Assembly: GCA_040878325.1 (NCBI GenBank)
Contig: JBBDMM010000002.1
Location: forward strand, 124,001 to 173,264
Length of the DNA stretch: 49,264 nt
DNA from: Acidimicrobiia bacterium
GTDB lineage: Bacteria; Actinomycetota; Acidimicrobiia; Spongiisociales; UBA11373
Direction: 5' to 3'
A program made the position numbers and the translations under genes. The notes beneath the pieces were generated by a model, which was not told the DNA's origin, made no database searches, and saw only the letters and a program-made list of their open reading frames with translations. Shown piece after piece: positions 3,956 through 18,824 of this stretch; within the stretch, counting starts at the first letter, position 1; each line of letters opens with the position of its first letter.

Positions 3956-5020
3956 CTATCCAGGGACGGCCTCTCGCAATCCGGCTTCGAAGCGGGCCGC
4001 GGCGGTGTCCCAGGTGAACCGTTCGGCGATCCATTTGCCGCCGGACTGCCCCATCGAAGTAGCCAAGTTCGGATCGTCGACAAGCCGGCGGAGCGCGTCG
4101 AAAAGGGCGTCGTCGCTATCGACCACGAATCCCGTGACTCCTGGATCGATCGTCTCAGGAGCACCGCCTGAACCGCCGGTTATGACGGGCAATCCGGTGG
4201 CAGCGGCCTCCAGGTAGACAACGCCGAGCCCTTCGACCTCGAGACCGAGCCAGCGTGATCGGCATGGCATGGCGAAAACCGACATCTCCCGATACAGAGA
4301 AGGGAGGCGCGAGTACGGGACGCCCACCTCGAACCGGGTCGGCACTCCGAGGCGGTCGGCGAGCCGGCGCAACCGGGCCTCGTCCCTCCCCGCCCCCACG
4401 AGTAGCGCCGAGACATCGCGACCCTCTCTTCTCAGGCGGGCAACTGCGGTGAGCACCCGCCCCTGGCCCTTCCGCGGGACGAACCTGCTCACGCAGCCCA
4501 CCACCGCGGATGCAGGAACGGCTCCGGGGCCAAACGCCGGATCGACCCCGACCCCCACCACCCGGACGGGCCGCCCCGCGAGCCGTTCTACGCGACCCGC
4601 CGTGTAGGTGGAGACTGCGAGCACCGCGTCGGCGCGCCGCAACGGGTACTTCACCAACTGCCGCGTCACCGGGAAGGCCGCCGGCATCGTGACCTCGGCG
4701 CCGTGACAGAGCACCGCATACGGAACCCCTGTCTCCTCTCGAAGGCGGGGCCCCAAGTGGGCCAACGGGTGAGGTGCCCCGAACAGCACGACATCGGGTT
4801 GGAAGTCGGCCACCTGGCTCGCCACCCAACGCCGGGTTCGCCGACTCGGCCACATGAATCGACGGTGGCCGCGGACCACTCCATCGCGCGGCCCGGCGGA
4901 GTCATCCCTCGGGGCGAGCACCCGAATCTCTCCGGGGAACGCCGCCACCAAGCCATTGAGGTACTGCTGAATCCCCCCCGGCTTAGGGGGGAAGTCGTTC
5001 GTGACCAGAAGAACACGCAT
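3956..5020 (-). CDS. Glycosyltransferase family 4 (PimB'-like mannosyltransferase)
   Basis: MRVLLVTNDFPPKPGGIQQY, SRFVPRKGQ, EGLGVVYLEAAATGLPV. Start moved to ATG at 5020 because the upstream extension runs through a heptamer repeat. Confidence 0.9.
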   Translation of the reverse strand: MRVLLVTNDFPPKPGGIQQYLNGLVAAFPGEIRVLAPRDDSAGPRDGVVRGHRRFMWPSRRTRRWVASQVADFQPDVVLFGAPHPLAHLGPRLREETGVPYAVLCHGAEVTMPAAFPVTRQLVKYPLRRADAVLAVSTYTAGRVERLAGRPVRVVGVGVDPAFGPGAVPASAVVGCVSRFVPRKGQGRVLTAVARLRREGRDVSALLVGAGRDEARLRRLADRLGVPTRFEVGVPYSRLPSLYREMSVFAMPCRSRWLGLEVEGLGVVYLEAAATGLPVITGGSGGAPETIDPGVTGFVVDSDDALFDALRRLVDDPNLATSMGQSGGKWIAERFTWDTAAARFEAGLREAVPG

Positions 5021-14367: not shown

Positions 14368-14369
14368 GA

Positions 14370-14415
14370 GCCTCGCTTCGCTCGGCTTCGCAATTCGCAA
14401 TTCGCAATTCGCAAT
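14370..14415 (+). repeat. Head motif GCCTCGCTTCGCTCGGC + (TTCGCAA)x4; target site of the IS
   Basis: Read directly; the last 8 nt (14408-14415) are duplicated at 16460-16467. Confidence 0.92.
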
Positions 14416-14590
14416 GGCGATGTTCCACTTGACGCACCAAGACCCGGTTTTTGGTGTGGGTAACTACCGCGAGTTGTCAACCCGCGACTCTCCGCACTAG
14501 TCACCGTCCACCTTGCCTGTTACGATTCGGACTTGACATACCGACACGCGTGAAATTCCATCACATGTGATTTCGGGAAGAGAGGACTGG

Positions 14591-14723
14591 GAACCCCGGT
14601 GGCCGTATCGGACTGGTACTCCGATACGGCCCTTCGGCACCTGGTTCGGCAGGGCATGCCTTGGGAGGTGCTGACGCGCACATGGTAACAACCGTGTGAT
14701 TCGCGGTCAAGGCACCTCCTAGG
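14591..14723. other. Two long stem-loops in the IS 5' non-coding region
   Basis: Perfect 12-bp stem GGCCGTATCGGA/TCCGATACGGCC (14601-14631); extended hairpin GGAGGTGC..TGAC..CACATGG/CCGTGTG..GTCA..GCACCTCC (14659-14723). Confidence 0.6.
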
Positions 14724-14760
14724 GTCGGAATTTGACACACCCAGGAAGTACTTTGACGGT

Positions 14761-15693
14761 ATGGACAACAGCACACTCAACCTCGCAGAACTTGCCAAGC
14801 ACCTCACCGACGAACACGCCGCCTGGGAACTCATCGAGAGCATCCGCTGGCCCGAAGGACCGACCTGCCCCCACTGCGGATGGGAGGACGGGGCCTACTA
14901 CCTCGGGAACCGCAAGACCCGCAAGGGCGAGGTCTCCCCTCGTCGGCTCTGGAAGTGCTCGCACTGCCGGAAGCAGTACTCCGCCCTCATCGGCACGATC
15001 TTCGAGCGCAGCCACATCCCCCTGTCGAAGTGGTTGTTGGGTATCCACCTTATGTCCGCTGGCAAGAACGGCGTCTCAGCCCACGAGTTGTCCCGGCAGT
15101 TGGGCATCACCGTCAAGTCGGCCTGGTTCATGTCGCACCGCATCCGCGAGGCGATGAAGCTCGACCCGCTCGCAGGGATGCTCTCAGGCACCATCGAAGC
15201 CGACGAGACCTACATCGGAGGCAAACGCCGCGGAAGCGGCCGCGGACGACCCGGTACAGCGTCCCACAAGACCGCCGTGTCAACGCTCGTCAGCCGAGAC
15301 GGAGAAGCCCGCAGTCAGGTTATGGAGCGAGTCACCGGCGACGACCTCGGCAAAGTGCTGTCGTCCAACGTCACGCCCGACTCCACGCTCATGACCGACG
15401 AGTTCTCGGCCTACCGCAAGCCAGGGCAGATGTTCGCCGGACACGAGACCGTCAACCACGCCCACGGCGAATACGCCCGCGGACGGGTCACCACAAACAC
15501 GGTCGAGGGGTACTTCTCACAGTTGAAGCGGTCGATCGACGGGACACACCACCATGTCACCCGCCACCACCTCCCGCGGTACCTGGCGAACTTCGACTAC
15601 CTCTACTCGACCCGCAAGCTCACCGACGGTGAGCGCACCTGGCGCACCATCCGCCAGGCCGGAGGGAGGCGACTCAAGTACGACACCCTTTAG
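14761..15693 (+). CDS. IS1595-family DDE transposase
   Basis: N-terminal Zn ribbon CPHC...CSHC, GTIFERSHIPLSKW, HTH, EADETYIGG, LMTDEFSAY, TNTVEGYFSQLKR; intact 310 aa. Confidence 0.96.
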   Translation: MDNSTLNLAELAKHLTDEHAAWELIESIRWPEGPTCPHCGWEDGAYYLGNRKTRKGEVSPRRLWKCSHCRKQYSALIGTIFERSHIPLSKWLLGIHLMSAGKNGVSAHELSRQLGITVKSAWFMSHRIREAMKLDPLAGMLSGTIEADETYIGGKRRGSGRGRPGTASHKTAVSTLVSRDGEARSQVMERVTGDDLGKVLSSNVTPDSTLMTDEFSAYRKPGQMFAGHETVNHAHGEYARGRVTTNTVEGYFSQLKRSIDGTHHHVTRHHLPRYLANFDYLYSTRKLTDGERTWRTIRQAGGRRLKYDTL

Positions 15694-15698
15694 ATCAT

Positions 15699-15787
15699 GG
15701 AGGGCTGGCAGAGTGGTCTATCGCGCTCGTCTCCAAAACGAGTAGGGGCTCCCAAGCCCCACGGGAGTTCAAATCTCCCGCCCTCCA
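15699..15787 (+). tRNA. tRNA with CCA (Trp) anticodon and Ser-like long variable arm, inside the IS
   Basis: Acceptor GGAGGGC/GCCCTCC; D-loop AGTGGTCTA; anticodon stem CTCGT/ACGAG with loop CT-CCA-AA; variable arm GGGGC-TCCCAA-GCCCC; T-arm GGGAG-TTCAAAT-CTCCC; discriminator A; no encoded CCA; one D-stem mismatch. Confidence 0.85.
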
Positions 15788-15796
15788 CTGAAAGTG

Positions 15797-15820
15797 CGGG
15801 GGCCCCTCACGGGGCCCCCG
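15797..15820. terminator. GC-rich hairpin between the convergent IS transcription units
   Basis: CGGGGGCCCC-TCAC-GGGGCCCCCG, perfect 10-bp stem; followed by CACTTT on the minus strand. Confidence 0.7.
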
Positions 15821-15826
15821 ACACCC

Positions 15827-15976
15827 TCAAGACCGGCAGACGGCGTCCAAGGCCCGGCGTCACCGACGGGCACGGTGGAGACTTTCATCCCCGAAGGGAT
15901 GCCCATCGTCTACCACCTGCGTCTGCCTCACCCGCCCCCTTGCTGGACAGTGCCTGTACAGAGGGGGTGACCTTGA
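15827..15976 (-). ncRNA. Putative multi-stem structured RNA of unknown family
   Basis: Nested pairings: TCAAG/CTTGA, GGCAGACG/CGTCTGCC, GGTGGAGAC/GTCTACCACC, CATCCC-TTCG-GGGATG (cUUCGg on minus strand), GCCCCCT/AGGGGGT. Confidence 0.5.
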
Positions 15977-15979
15977 AAC

Positions 15980-16159
15980 CTACTTATCGTCCGACTCTGA
16001 TGTATCGGTGTCGTCGGACGGAACCTTGACGGACAGAAGGCCACGGAGGGCCTGGTCGAAGGTCATGGGATGGAGACTGGTGCGCTCGTCGTAGTCGCGC
16101 TTCGCCGACTCATCCTTGCTGGAGACACGCTGAACAGGCCCACGTCGCTCAGCCGCCAT
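15980..16159 (-). CDS. Small IS passenger protein (59 aa), unknown function
   Basis: MAAERRGPVQRVSSKDESAKRDYDERTSLHPMTFDQALRGLLSVKVPSDDTDTSESDDK; GGAG RBS 6 nt before the ATG; promoter upstream; below the ORF-track cutoff. Confidence 0.65.
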   Translation of the reverse strand: MAAERRGPVQRVSSKDESAKRDYDERTSLHPMTFDQALRGLLSVKVPSDDTDTSESDDK

Positions 16160-16224
16160 CTACCGCTCCCTTGGCTGGTCCGCTCACCACACCCGTAACC
16201 ACACGCGTGTGACCAGTTGTCCAC

Positions 16225-16253
16225 ATTGTCTACCCATTACCGCTACTTGTCAA
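16225..16253 (-). promoter_or_regulatory. Sigma70-type promoter for the convergent small ORF/RNA unit
   Basis: Minus strand TTGACA-17 nt-GACAAT. Confidence 0.7.
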
Positions 16254-16484
16254 TCACACAAAACACAAGCGCACAAACCCCTATTCCTCCACCCGTGTTA
16301 CCCAATCCTCCCAATTCTGTCGACATCCGCGACAAGTAGATAGATAGGAGGGTTGATGAAAAGAAGACGAATAGGCCGCCGGTCCATGAGTGGCCCTTAA
16401 GGGCTGGCCAGGCGGCACCCGCAATTGCGGGTCGGTGGTGCGTCAAGTAGAACATCACCTTCGCAATTCGACCGAGCATGTCCA

Positions 16485-16530
16485 GCGGGCAGCCGGAAGC
16501 GGGCAGCCGGAAGCGGGCAGCGGGCAGCGG
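16485..16530. repeat. Heptamer array GCGGGCA/GCCGGAA x6.5
   Basis: Read directly. Confidence 0.88.
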
Positions 16531-16574
16531 CGATCGGGGCGTGGACGTCCGACTCTCCCTCTACCGTCGCGAAC

Positions 16575-18824
16575 ATGCACCCCGTCGTTGCCGATTGGCT
16601 TGCCGATCCTGAGCGGGCCGGGCGCATCGTCCACGTCGAGACGGTGCCCGAGCGGCGGGCCATCTTCGAAGCACTCGATCCGCCGTTGCCCGACCGGCTT
16701 GCCGAGGCGCTGGGGGCGCGAGGCATCGACCGGCTGTACCGCCATCAGGCCCAGGCGATCAGCCGGGCCCGTTCGGGGATCCACACCGTGGTGGTCGCCG
16801 GCACCGCCTCGGGGAAGTCGCTGGGGTACCAGGCGCCGATCCTCGAAGCGGCGTTGGGCGAGGGGCACGCCACCGCGCTCATGCTCTTCCCCACGAAGGC
16901 GCTGGCCCGCGACCAGTTGCGAGCCCTCGACGCCTTCGGGATCGCCGAGGCGACACCGGTGGTGTACGACGGTGACACCGACGCCGACGCCCGCGTCTGG
17001 GCCCGGCGCCACGCCAATGTGGTGATGACGAACCCCGACATGCTTCACATCGGGATCCTGCCGTCCCACAGCAAATGGGCCACCTTCTTCCGTCACCTGC
17101 AATTTGTCGTCGTCGACGAGGTCCACGTCCTGCGGGGGATCTTCGGCAGCCATGTCGGGAATGTCCTGCGCCGTCTACGTCGCGTTGCCCGTCACTACGG
17201 CGCCGACCCCACGTTCCTCGGGTCGTCGGCGACGATTGGCAACCCCGGCGAATTGATGTCGGGGCTGACCGGCCTGCCGGTGGAGGTGGTGGAACAGGAC
17301 ACCTCCCCCGCCGGCGTGCGCCACTACGTGCTGTGGAACCCCGAGATGGAGGCGGACGATCTCCGCCGGAGCGCTCTCGCCGAGACCACCGACTTGTTCG
17401 TCGACCTGGTACGGCGCGGGGAGCACACGATCGCATTCACCCGGAGCCGCAAGGGTGTCGAGCTGGTGTATCGGTGGGCGCGGGAACGGCTCGATGCCGA
17501 CCTGGCGGACCGCATTGCCCCTTACCGCGCCGGGTACCTGCCTGAGCAGCGGCGTGAGGTCGAACGCCGTCTGTTCTCAGGAGAGTTGCTCGGGGTCACC
17601 GCTACCAACGCCCTCGAACTGGGGATCGACGTCGGTGGTCTCGACGCCGCCATCGTCGCCACCTTCCCCGGCACGGTTGCCTCCTTCCGGCAACAGACGG
17701 GGCGGGCGGGACGATCCACCGACGAGTCGCTTTCGGTGTTGGTGGCGGGGCAGGATGCCCTCGACCAGTGGTACATGAACCACCCTCGGGACCTGTTCGG
17801 ACGGGCTTCCGAGGCGGCGGTGATCAACCCGTCGAACCCGCATGTGCTCGCCGGCCACATGGGATGCGCCGCCTACGAGATCCCGATGCTGTCCAACGAC
17901 GCGATCGCCACGTTCGGACCGGAAGTGGAGCCGTTGGCCGCCGACCTGGTGAACGACGGAGTGTTACGGGTCCGCAACGGTCGGCTGCTCTGGGCCGGCC
18001 GCGGTGCTCCGGCTCCCGCCATCGACATCCGCACTGCCGGTGGACCGCCCTTCACGATCGTCGACGACACCGGCGAGGTGATCGGAACGATGGACGAGAA
18101 CCGGGTGTTCTCCCAGGCCCATCCCGGGGCGGTGTACCTGCACCAGGGCGACTCGTATGTGATCGAGTATCTCGACATCGCCGACCGCCTGGTCCGCGCC
18201 CGAGCCGACGAGGTGGGCTACTACACCCAGCCCGAGGAAGACACCAACATCGACGTGCTCGAGGTGCTGCGAACTGACACCGTCGGGCGATTCGGGCATC
18301 GGCTGGGCGAGGTAGAGGTCGAGTCGCATGTCACCGGGTTCAAACGCAAGAAGATCGGCGACCGCAGCGTCGTTTCCTATGAACCGCTCGATCTGCCACC
18401 CCGTCGATACGCCACCCAGGCGATCTGGTTCACCGTCGACGAGGGCCTATTGCGTGACTCCGGCGTCATGGAGGCCGACCTCCCCGGGACACTCCACGCC
18501 GCCGAGCACACCGGAATCGCCATGCTGCCCCTCTTCGCCATCTGCGACCGCTGGGACATCGGGGGGTTGTCGACCCCGTTCCACCCGGCGGCGGGTATGC
18601 CGGTCTGGTTCATCTACGACGGCTACCCCGGCGGAGCGGGGATCGCCCCCATCGCCTACGACGCCGGTGCCCGCCACCTGCGCGCCACCCTGGAGGCGCT
18701 GCGCACCTGCCCCTGCGACACCGGCTGCCCCTCATGCGTCCAGTCGCCGAAGTGCGGCAACTTCAATGAGCCGCTCGACAAGGCGGGGGCGGTGCGTCTG
18801 CTAGAGGTGGGGCTGGGTCGATAG
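16575..18824 (+). CDS. DEAD/DEAH helicase with C-terminal DUF1998 Zn domain (MrfA/SftH/Hrq1-like)
   Basis: GTASGKS, PTKALARDQ, DEVH, SAT, TNALELGID, QQTGRAGR, CPCDTGCPSC. Confidence 0.93.
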   Translation: MHPVVADWLADPERAGRIVHVETVPERRAIFEALDPPLPDRLAEALGARGIDRLYRHQAQAISRARSGIHTVVVAGTASGKSLGYQAPILEAALGEGHATALMLFPTKALARDQLRALDAFGIAEATPVVYDGDTDADARVWARRHANVVMTNPDMLHIGILPSHSKWATFFRHLQFVVVDEVHVLRGIFGSHVGNVLRRLRRVARHYGADPTFLGSSATIGNPGELMSGLTGLPVEVVEQDTSPAGVRHYVLWNPEMEADDLRRSALAETTDLFVDLVRRGEHTIAFTRSRKGVELVYRWARERLDADLADRIAPYRAGYLPEQRREVERRLFSGELLGVTATNALELGIDVGGLDAAIVATFPGTVASFRQQTGRAGRSTDESLSVLVAGQDALDQWYMNHPRDLFGRASEAAVINPSNPHVLAGHMGCAAYEIPMLSNDAIATFGPEVEPLAADLVNDGVLRVRNGRLLWAGRGAPAPAIDIRTAGGPPFTIVDDTGEVIGTMDENRVFSQAHPGAVYLHQGDSYVIEYLDIADRLVRARADEVGYYTQPEEDTNIDVLEVLRTDTVGRFGHRLGEVEVESHVTGFKRKKIGDRSVVSYEPLDLPPRRYATQAIWFTVDEGLLRDSGVMEADLPGTLHAAEHTGIAMLPLFAICDRWDIGGLSTPFHPAAGMPVWFIYDGYPGGAGIAPIAYDAGARHLRATLEALRTCPCDTGCPSCVQSPKCGNFNEPLDKAGAVRLLEVGLGR

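Follow-up and report, generated by a model that had tools for sequence, protein, structure and literature searches.

The window analysed here, a stretch of 49,264 nucleotides from contig JBBDMM010000002.1 of an Acidimicrobiia bacterium, contains a 2,044-bp insertion sequence (IS) of the IS1595 family at positions 14416-16459. The common picture of an IS is of two ends enclosing a transposase gene; the widespread sub-lineage to which this element belongs keeps more. The only long open reading frame (ORF) of the element is the transposase gene (14761-15693, plus strand; 310 residues). Starting 5 nt past its stop codon is a class-II tRNA with a serine-type body, the anticodon CCA and the discriminator base A73 (15699-15788, plus strand; ARAGORN and Rfam), and a tiny ORF of 59 residues with the core motif TSLHPMTFDQALRGLL (15980-16159, minus strand; HMM family) faces back from the opposite strand, its product being a predicted partner of the transposase. 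Comparison with related elements indicates that the extra DNA is a lineage-specific module comprising this tiny gene and a structurally sound class-II tRNA.

An initial annotation of this DNA had placed the element in IS1595, with 24-bp terminal inverted repeats and an exact 8-bp target duplication enclosing 2,044 bp, and both the assignment and the coordinates hold. The transposase matches PF12760 (Zn_ribbon_IS1595; 2.5e-12, residues 17-72), PF12762 (DDE_Tnp_IS1595; 6.1e-35) and NF033547 (1.3e-58, 198.4 bits against a cut-off of 75), and the element has every feature of the family that was examined, namely an ISXO2/IS1595-type DDE transposase, a zinc ribbon, and inverted repeats with an 8-bp duplication. 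The left (14416-14439, plus strand, GGCGATGTTCCACTTGACGCACCA) and right (16436-16459, minus strand, from a repeat search) terminal inverted repeats are identical at 22/24 positions, and the repeat search lengthens the arms to 29 nt at 86%. The octamer TTCGCAAT is exact on both flanks (14408-14415 and 16460-16467); its left copy, found by direct reading and as direct-repeat family D2, lies within a (GCAATTC)n heptamer array, such that part of the TTCGCAAT identity is inherent in the target. Duplications of 8 bp were also read in L013, L015, L016, L053, L066, L088, L093 and L094 (L numbers denote related loci), and the end motif GGYGAT..ACTTGAC.AACC is common to 73 related loci. The end sequence GGCGAT(T/G)..T, with GGCGATTAT.. 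in relatives, may resemble the ends of the ISNwi1 subgroup.

The element is intact and recently mobile. It is present as a single copy in its own 2.2-Mb genome. In a same-genus genome of a sister species (G001), both ends were found at 100% identity on two contig ends, with flanks unlike those of the window, in another heptamer array and with the duplication TTGGCAAT. Moreover, contigs of a related strain from two other runs of the same study join position 14368 to 16575 with the element absent, and other contigs of those runs carry the element between different flanks. The sequencing runs listed for this stretch are 4 DNA runs of one study, with no RNA run among them. Recent movement follows from these two observations, the element being elsewhere in the sister species and missing at this site in the related strain. 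Within the class its spread is patchy, with a relative at E <= 1e-60 in 14/401 sampled genomes.

Relatives of the transposase were collected from genome contigs (253) and metagenome contigs (512), and the best 80 of each set were kept for analysis. Of the 163 loci examined, 79 feature an inverted-repeat pair with at least 16 matches, 73 of these with a family-like end motif, and the elements so defined are 1.9-4.3 kb long around a transposase gene of ~0.95 kb. The closest relatives are L092 (80% amino acid identity) and L002 (about 60%), and all three elements share the same order of transposase, same-strand Ser-type tRNA, hairpin and back-facing tiny ORF. Among de-duplicated elements with defined ends, the tiny ORF and a tRNA of at least 80 nt are both present in 9 of 9 at identities of at least 58%; at 47-57% (n=22) the tiny ORF is found in 14 and the tRNA in 2, and below 47% (n=36) each is found in 1. 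The extra DNA is thus an ordered, conserved module and no chance capture, in line with the shared order in L092 and L002, and the proposal of a functional module is right in part. The tRNA is not universal: it is rare farther out, and when all loci at >=58% are counted, with ends found or not, a long-arm tRNA is present in 14/23. Of the nine without one, L099, L101, L105 and L192 lie on short or cut contigs; L096, L097, L017 and L118 have full flanks and yielded no tRNA in a permissive Rfam search; and L003 has an irregular 72-nt tRNA-like piece alone. Beyond these sets, samples of 401 genomes each gave 4 matches in Actinomycetota, own genome included, and 7 in Chloroflexota, and the viral collection holds relatives at 53% identity or less only.

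The 59-residue ORF reported in the initial annotation is present, and it belongs to a family of its own. In an all-against-all comparison of the ORFs of 15 elements it clusters with small ORFs of four others, and a small HMM with the motif [IV]SL.PL.FEEAL..LL...P recovers 37 frames at E <= 2e-5; as L102 duplicates L016 and L009 duplicates L002, these amount to 35 distinct loci. The position and orientation of the tiny ORF vary between elements. A profile search of a large protein collection returned 64 proteins at E <= 0.001, all of them unnamed and without a Pfam domain; the window protein itself has no Pfam, NCBIfam or PADLOC match, and a protein atlas offers only 'hypothetical protein' clusters for it. 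Across a 30-codon core compared between the window and L092, synonymous sites differ by 0.74 and non-synonymous sites by 0.16 (pN/pS 0.21). The tiny ORF is thus a real gene under purifying selection.

Structural modeling suggests a binding partner for the tiny protein. When the transposase and the tiny protein were predicted as a complex, with each partner folded from a 30-row alignment, three runs gave a model confidence (ipSAE) of 0.73, 0.73 and 0.71, and the best of the three controls scored 0.00; the same ipSAE mark is attained by 116/157 solved complexes and by 2/215 mismatched pairs. Contact agreement in the model is no lower than 64%, and the pLDDT of the partner no lower than 55. Contacts of high confidence connect residues 21-48 of the tiny protein, its conserved core, to residues 77-136 of the transposase, a segment that runs from the helix-turn-helix region to the linker preceding the catalytic domain. 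The tiny protein is thus probably a partner of the transposase and not cargo. As a side observation, a 24-nt inverted similarity (75%) links 15616-15639 at the transposase 3' end with 16079-16102 in the tiny ORF, and both stretches encode K..D.ERT; this may be chance, or the tiny gene may derive from the transposase tail.

The second component, the tRNA that had been noted inside the element, is well formed. ARAGORN identifies it as the sole tRNA in the window, 90 nt long with the anticodon CCA, and it scores 49.1 bits with the Rfam tRNA model, against a gathering score of 29. Its acceptor stem measures 7 bp, and its T stem and variable arm 5 bp each; the T-loop is TTCAAAT, the D-loop contains GG, the anticodon loop is CU-CCA-AA with U33 and A37, and the D stem has one A·C mismatch. 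The long variable arm and cloverleaf features make it a class-II tRNA. Its identity to host tRNAs is highest for Ser(GCU) (72%), followed by the other Ser tRNAs (61-68%), Tyr (62%), Leu (48-61%) and Trp (57%). The serine tRNA identity set of E. coli comprises G1:C72, G2:C71, A3:U70 and C11:G24, and the body has the canonical serine-type class-II structure, including the long arm, the T-loop, the D-loop GG and Ser-like acceptor pairs. The anticodon is nonetheless neither NGA nor GCU, as a serine tRNA would have, and the discriminator is A73 versus G73 in the host Ser tRNAs. Nor is it a tRNA-Trp, since the CCA anticodon sits on a 90-nt long-arm body versus the ~75 nt of class I; the host has an ordinary 75-nt tRNA-Trp (C9:70090-70164) as well as four tRNA-Ser genes. 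The tRNA structure is under selection: in an RNAalifold consensus of six Ser-like IS tRNAs, 14 of 28 predicted pairs have changed on both sides and still pair. Three over-long ARAGORN calls elsewhere in genome G000, Glu-CUC (103 nt, C6:52571-52673), Cys-GCA (99 nt, C9:73366-73464) and Arg-GCG (87 nt, C10:138354-138440), may be further irregular tRNAs or false calls.

Across the lineage, 19 long-arm tRNAs were found in 16 elements, and every body is Ser-like or Leu-like, as classed by nearest-neighbour similarity to host class-II tRNAs. The anticodon fits the body in 0/19. Ser-like bodies carry CCA (window), UUC (L092), CAU (L002) or CAA (L093, L094, L098). Leu-like bodies carry predominantly UGG (L015, L023, L072, L095, L103, L106), together with CGG (L012, L016), AGG (L002, L193), UUC (L094), GGA (L013) and UUA (L050). 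SerRS and LeuRS are not known to read the anticodon of their tRNAs. With 50.5 bits, the L092 tRNA exceeds the gathering score (47) of the Rfam tRNA-Sec model. Suppression of stop codons was considered for the UUA tRNA of L050 and rejected: TGA terminates the ORF behind this tRNA, the ORF after that starts from an ATG with a ribosome-binding site of its own, and no TAA is read through. The irregular piece in L003 (2429-2500, minus strand) comes from a genome in the same family as that of the window and is situated downstream of a related transposase; its acceptor stem has 8 bp and its T arm is normal, a hairpin takes the place of the D and anticodon arms, and it scores 34.6 bits with the tmRNA model, below the gathering score.

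These tRNAs need not be decoders. They could instead be structural RNAs of tRNA shape, either as a signal for processing and stability, with RNase P cleavage fixing the 3' end of the transposase message, or as a molecule that the transposase, the tiny protein or the variable cargo proteins use as ligand or scaffold. Such a role fits the window, L092 and L002, where the tRNA lies on the same strand 5-20 nt behind the transposase stop codon, and it fits the preservation of the stems among close relatives whose anticodons diverge (CCA, UUC, CAU, CAA). It would also accommodate the irregular versions, namely C33 in place of U33 in L012, L072 and L106, the tRNA-Sec-like form of L092 and the 72-nt form of L003, and the occupation of the same slot in L066 by a DUF3800-VII RNA beside a DUF3800 gene. 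In most relatives, however, tRNA and transposase occupy opposite strands, an arrangement that speaks against action at the 3' end of the mRNA as a general role, and a non-decoding RNA leaves two features unexplained: the restriction to the two body classes of anticodon-blind synthetases, and a match between anticodons and codons in sister elements. We therefore regard a purely structural role as rather unlikely.

The match concerns two positions of the transposase gene. X1 is the final residue of the motif preceding the catalytic domain (P134 in the window, inside the predicted interface region), and Y lies three residues past the conserved C-terminal Tyr (L310 in the window). Elements with a UGG tRNA (the six Leu-like ones and L013, through an irregular 69-nt UGG tRNA) have CCA at X1 in 7/7 and at Y in 7/7. 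With CGG tRNAs the codon is CCG at both sites in L016 and at X1 in L012, where Y is unaligned; with AGG tRNAs it is CCT at X1 and Y in both L002 and L193. The raw totals, wobble base included, are thus 11/11 at X1 and 10/10 at Y. In L015 and L095, whose G+C content is about 65%, CCA occurs in the gene nowhere but at X1 and Y, and the same holds for CCG in L016. In a quick tree the two CGG elements fall in separate clades, and the two AGG tRNAs are 53% alike, such that the switch must have arisen more than once. A similar pattern is seen for the Ser-like CAA tRNAs, where the codon adjoining X1, termed X2, is TTG in 3/3 elements; at X2 the window and L092 have CTC, and L002 has CTG.

Two other readings of the codons were tried and rejected. 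A private code that restores a consensus residue does not fit, as the matched codons stand at conserved W, E and P in their standard meaning and no column has Ser or Leu as its 'true' residue. Nor do the elements shun the matched codon in their own genes, as L015, L095 and L072 use CCG and CCA freely.

Taken together, the explanation that we favour, with a probability of roughly 0.4, is that the tRNA decodes UGG and acts mainly on the mRNA of its own element, alongside a tiny protein that binds the transposase. The tiny protein would bind the helix-turn-helix and linker region and tune transposition. The tRNA would be transcribed jointly with the transposase mRNA; after its processing SerRS, which is not known to read the anticodon, would charge it with Ser, and TrpRS possibly with Trp via the anticodon. 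It would then decode UGG and alter the translation rate or the isoforms of its own mRNA, the effect falling mainly there because the tRNA is made with the transposase message. That these tRNAs would decode at all is suggested by the sister elements, since their Leu-type tRNAs have Pro anticodons that match Pro codons at two fixed, substitution-tolerant sites. The window tRNA would either have been retargeted to the seven UGG codons of the window transposase or be a one-base derivative of a CAA tRNA whose original target was lost. A more elaborate version, in which anticodon-switched tRNAs and matched codons near the tiny-protein interface form a private decoding circuit by which the element would set the speed of transposase production or the isoform made, and of which the window copy would be a retargeted member reading UGG, is somewhat doubtful. 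The strongest new points are the predicted pairing of transposase and tiny protein and, in sister elements, the match of anticodons to codons. The role of the tRNA in the window copy itself is one that we infer.

A number of observations weigh against this explanation. In the window, X1, X2 and Y read CCG, CTC and CTT, none of which matches its own CCA tRNA, and tests on synonymous codons are blind here because UGG is the sole Trp codon. Among all loci X1 is CCA in 30, CCG in 14, CCT in 5 and CCC in 5, CCA being common with or without a tRNA. The CCA/CCA combination also occurs in the tRNA-less L108, L022 and L133, and a search of 10 tRNA-less loci of this type by Rfam E-value found no tRNA, such that the codons do not require one; TTG likewise occurs at X2 without a CAA tRNA. 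No Pro-anticodon tRNA was found within 1.5-kb flanks of the new sample loci from Actinomycetota and Chloroflexota, including 1.5 kb on each side of the 7 new Chloroflexota relatives. The match counts of 11/11 and 10/10 are not probabilities, because the relatives are not independent. Since the residues vary at both sites (Pro, Ser, Gly and Ala at X1; Pro, Thr, Val and Leu at Y), they disclose no intended amino acid. Moreover, three of the Trp residues of the transposase are nearly invariant (W30 in 160/161, W91 and W122 in 158/161 each), and Ser at these positions would therefore harm the enzyme. Finally, the ipSAE scores of the complex express model confidence and are no measurement of binding. 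At a fourth Trp, W41, the column has Val, Ser and Gly as its commonest residues, and the window alone has Trp among the 26 rows displayed.

The anticodon loop itself raises a further alternative. The window loop reads CTCCAAA versus CTCAAAA in L093, L094 and L098, leaving the anticodon one base from CAA, and the tRNA has accordingly been either retargeted to UGG or orphaned from the CAA form. If orphaned outright, it would be a still well-folded remnant of a CAA ancestor that lost its target, and would now be a passenger of the transposase and the tiny protein with no role. The closeness of CCA to the CAA of these three sisters, the CTC (not TTG) at X2 in the window and the A·C mismatch in the D stem all accord with decay, as does the loss of the tRNA from many relatives, including L096, which lacks it though 93% identical to the tRNA-bearing L095. 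Against this, the cloverleaf is intact at 49.1 bits, the 100% identical ends in G001 imply a recent spread with the present content, and L092 retains a tRNA in the same place with another anticodon. An orphan without a role thus seems quite improbable.

The cargo of related elements bears on whether the tRNA might be aimed outside its own element. Relatives encode DUF5343-like proteins (L016, L082), an 89-residue Cas2-like protein (L023), a protein with a SocA/Panacea antitoxin domain (L082), XRE regulators (L072) and a DUF3800 protein (L066), as well as several proteins of 170-290 residues without a family. Such company would suit a tRNA directed at the host or at other mobile elements, either as a mistranslator (a stress diversifier or addiction toxin) or as a decoy or spare against a tRNA-cutting defence. 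There is a precedent in the available excerpts of Mukai et al. 2017 (PMC5389517), where induced tRNAs of Ser identity that bore anticodons for Leu halted the growth of E. coli and such tRNAs lay near toxin-antitoxin genes and a transposon-related ORF. PADLOC, in contrast, assigned no defence family among the 19 proteins tested, bar two weak JetA coiled-coil matches, the window element carries no toxin or defence gene, the codons matched belong to the element's own transposase, and the host retains a normal tRNA-Trp. We consider an outward-directed role very unlikely, and retain a tRNA acting mainly on its own mRNA as the favoured explanation.

Two further features of these relatives were noted. 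In L066, an element of 3.9 kb, a DUF3800-VII RNA lies just after the transposase (3992-4085, minus strand; Rfam, 74.2 bits against a gathering score of 36.2) and adjoins a DUF3800 gene (4163-4924, minus strand; Pfam 2e-8). Orphan DUF3800-associated RNA motifs were reportedly described by Weinberg et al. in 2017, and one of them is now tied to the cargo of an IS1595 element. In L002/L191 (G014:C16:908-1801), the transposase has one in-frame TAG in the catalytic domain, which the tRNAs of L002 (CAU, AGG) would not read; as neither of its own tRNAs reads the TAG, this is probably a broken copy.

The element resembles the transporter ISs (tISs) of the IS1595 family in having one DDE transposase with an N-terminal zinc ribbon, inverted repeats, an 8-bp duplication and extra DNA, and it carries non-transposase genes inside its inverted repeats, namely the tRNA and the 59-residue ORF. 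If the tiny protein is a transposition factor, however, it is not a true tIS passenger. According to the available part of a TnCentral preprint, tISs are confined to the IS1595 and IS66 families. Unlike ordinary tIS passengers, the extra DNA here comprises a tRNA and a predicted transposase-binding protein, both conserved in the sub-lineage. The initial annotation knew of no IS1595 member with a tRNA plus a non-coding RNA as cargo, and the literature searched, with subscription papers and ISfinder outside its scope, likewise held no description of IS1595 elements with tRNA cargo, the tiny protein or codon matching.

The closest parallel to the tRNA is found in allo-tRNAs, long-arm Ser-like tRNAs with the anticodons of other amino acids or stops. 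In the available excerpts of Mukai et al. 2017 (PMC5389517), these and polycistrons of irregular tRNAs are described from Acidobacteria and soil metagenomes, and Ser was inserted at Leu codons in E. coli. Allo-tRNAs feature a 12-bp acceptor branch of 8/4 or 9/3 geometry, whereas the window tRNA has the ordinary 7/5 and is therefore not an allo-tRNA. It also differs in lying inside a defined IS1595 element, and the same excerpts report no codon matching to a transposase (Mukai et al. 2017). The sister in L092, which alone passes the tRNA-Sec model, comes nearest to the allo-tRNA likeness. A disagreement between body identity and anticodon is reportedly also seen in tRNA-ProX of Streptomyces and Kitasatospora, a mistranslating bacterial tRNA with a Pro-type body that is said to adjoin a dedicated ProRS isoform. 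The window tRNA, by comparison, has a Ser-type body and an insertion-sequence carrier, and no synthetase gene lies in or beside the element.

Small regulators of transposition are encoded by several ISs, among them InsA of IS1, the inhibitor of Tn5 and OrfA of IS911. The tiny protein resembles these as a small element-encoded protein with predicted contacts on the helix-turn-helix region (77-136), and differs in having its own gene, not taken from the transposase frame, with a variable position and orientation and no Pfam or NCBIfam family. If the tRNAs decode, this would be a natural mobile element that edits the reading of its own genes, with a bearing on local exceptions to the genetic code and on self-limited transposition. 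The lineage could also provide compact, anticodon-independent tRNA scaffolds for code engineering. Part of the 'irregular tRNAs' of soil metagenomes now has a genomic home.

The remainder of the element is non-coding. The leader (14440-14728, plus strand) folds into stable hairpins with a perfect 12-bp stem at 14603-14633, and the fold of 14440-14765 has z = -3.96, in agreement with the 5' hairpins proposed at the outset. The leader is partly conserved in L092, where a hairpin is kept in other sequence, and it might serve as an insulator. Directly before the ATG lies the motif TGACACACCCAG..GTACYTTG (14729-14760, plus strand), which is kept in the window, L092, L093 and L094 and resembles the inner part of the terminal repeat. 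L099 has its real terminal repeat at the place of this motif, which suggests that an older left end lay here and that the leader became attached beyond it. The motif may be a promoter for a leaderless transposase mRNA. Inner copies of the terminal repeat (10/14 matches at 14530 and 14729) were at chance level, with 43 such matches window-wide, and what singles out the site at 14729 is its conservation.

Between the converging tRNA and tiny-ORF units lies a G+C hairpin (15795-15822) with a perfect 9-bp stem (15798-15806/15811-15819), kept in L092 with a different sequence; given this position it looks like a two-way terminator. The GC hairpin of the initial annotation is therefore confirmed, but the separate structured RNA that was proposed next to it on the minus strand is not. 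That stretch (15823-15979, minus strand) is better described as a spacer or 3' untranslated stretch of the tiny ORF: the fold of 15789-15982 (z = -4.04) is dominated by the terminator-like hairpin, and the remainder is not conserved in L092, save for one block that is the L092 coding tail and where the window has a TAG stop. Rfam searches of the leader, the spacer and the right arm identified no family besides the tRNA; a weak match to sX4 (21.5 bits against a gathering score of 70) overlaps the tRNA. The description of the element as a 'multi-RNA cassette' is accordingly overstated, as only the tRNA holds as an RNA family. A promoter-like TTGACA-17-GACAAT (16225-16253, minus strand) lies upstream of the tiny ORF, as had been claimed, with 10/12 matches; the pattern scan gave two such sites, where shuffled sequence would yield 0.5. 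L092 lacks the -35 part, however, and the site is thus not conserved there. Of the right non-coding stretch (16254-16435), about 110 bp are absent from L092 in an alignment of the two; the stretch contains a palindrome, CCCGCAATTGCGGG, that resembles the target repeat. The right end of L092 aligns at about 16329-16349, which suggests an older right end further in.

The element lies within a repeat family composed of a G+C hairpin followed by a (GCAATTC)n array, at 14369-14415 and 16460-16475. In the 2.2-Mb genome, GCAATTCGCAATTC has 52 overlapping matches at about 35 loci, and read depth over the repeat is 5-12x that of its flanks. The sub-lineage may prefer such arrays, as comparable duplications are found in several relatives (TTGGCAAT in G001 and L093, TTGCGAAT in L012, ATTGCGAA in L155). 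Targeting of the bridge-RNA type was considered and set aside, as the classical inverted ends, the DDE transposase and the 8-bp duplication argue otherwise. A comparison of the tRNA loops with the heptamer target, made by eye only and with no formal test, gave no match, and we saw no evidence pointing to the role in target choice that had been suggested for the module. The neighbouring genes encode a LytR_cpsA_psr protein and a DEAD/MZB helicase, and the insertion is therefore intergenic. To the right of the element, upstream of the helicase gene, positions 16483-16531 contain three tandem 14-nt units (CAGCGGGCAGCCGGAAGCGGG and variants).

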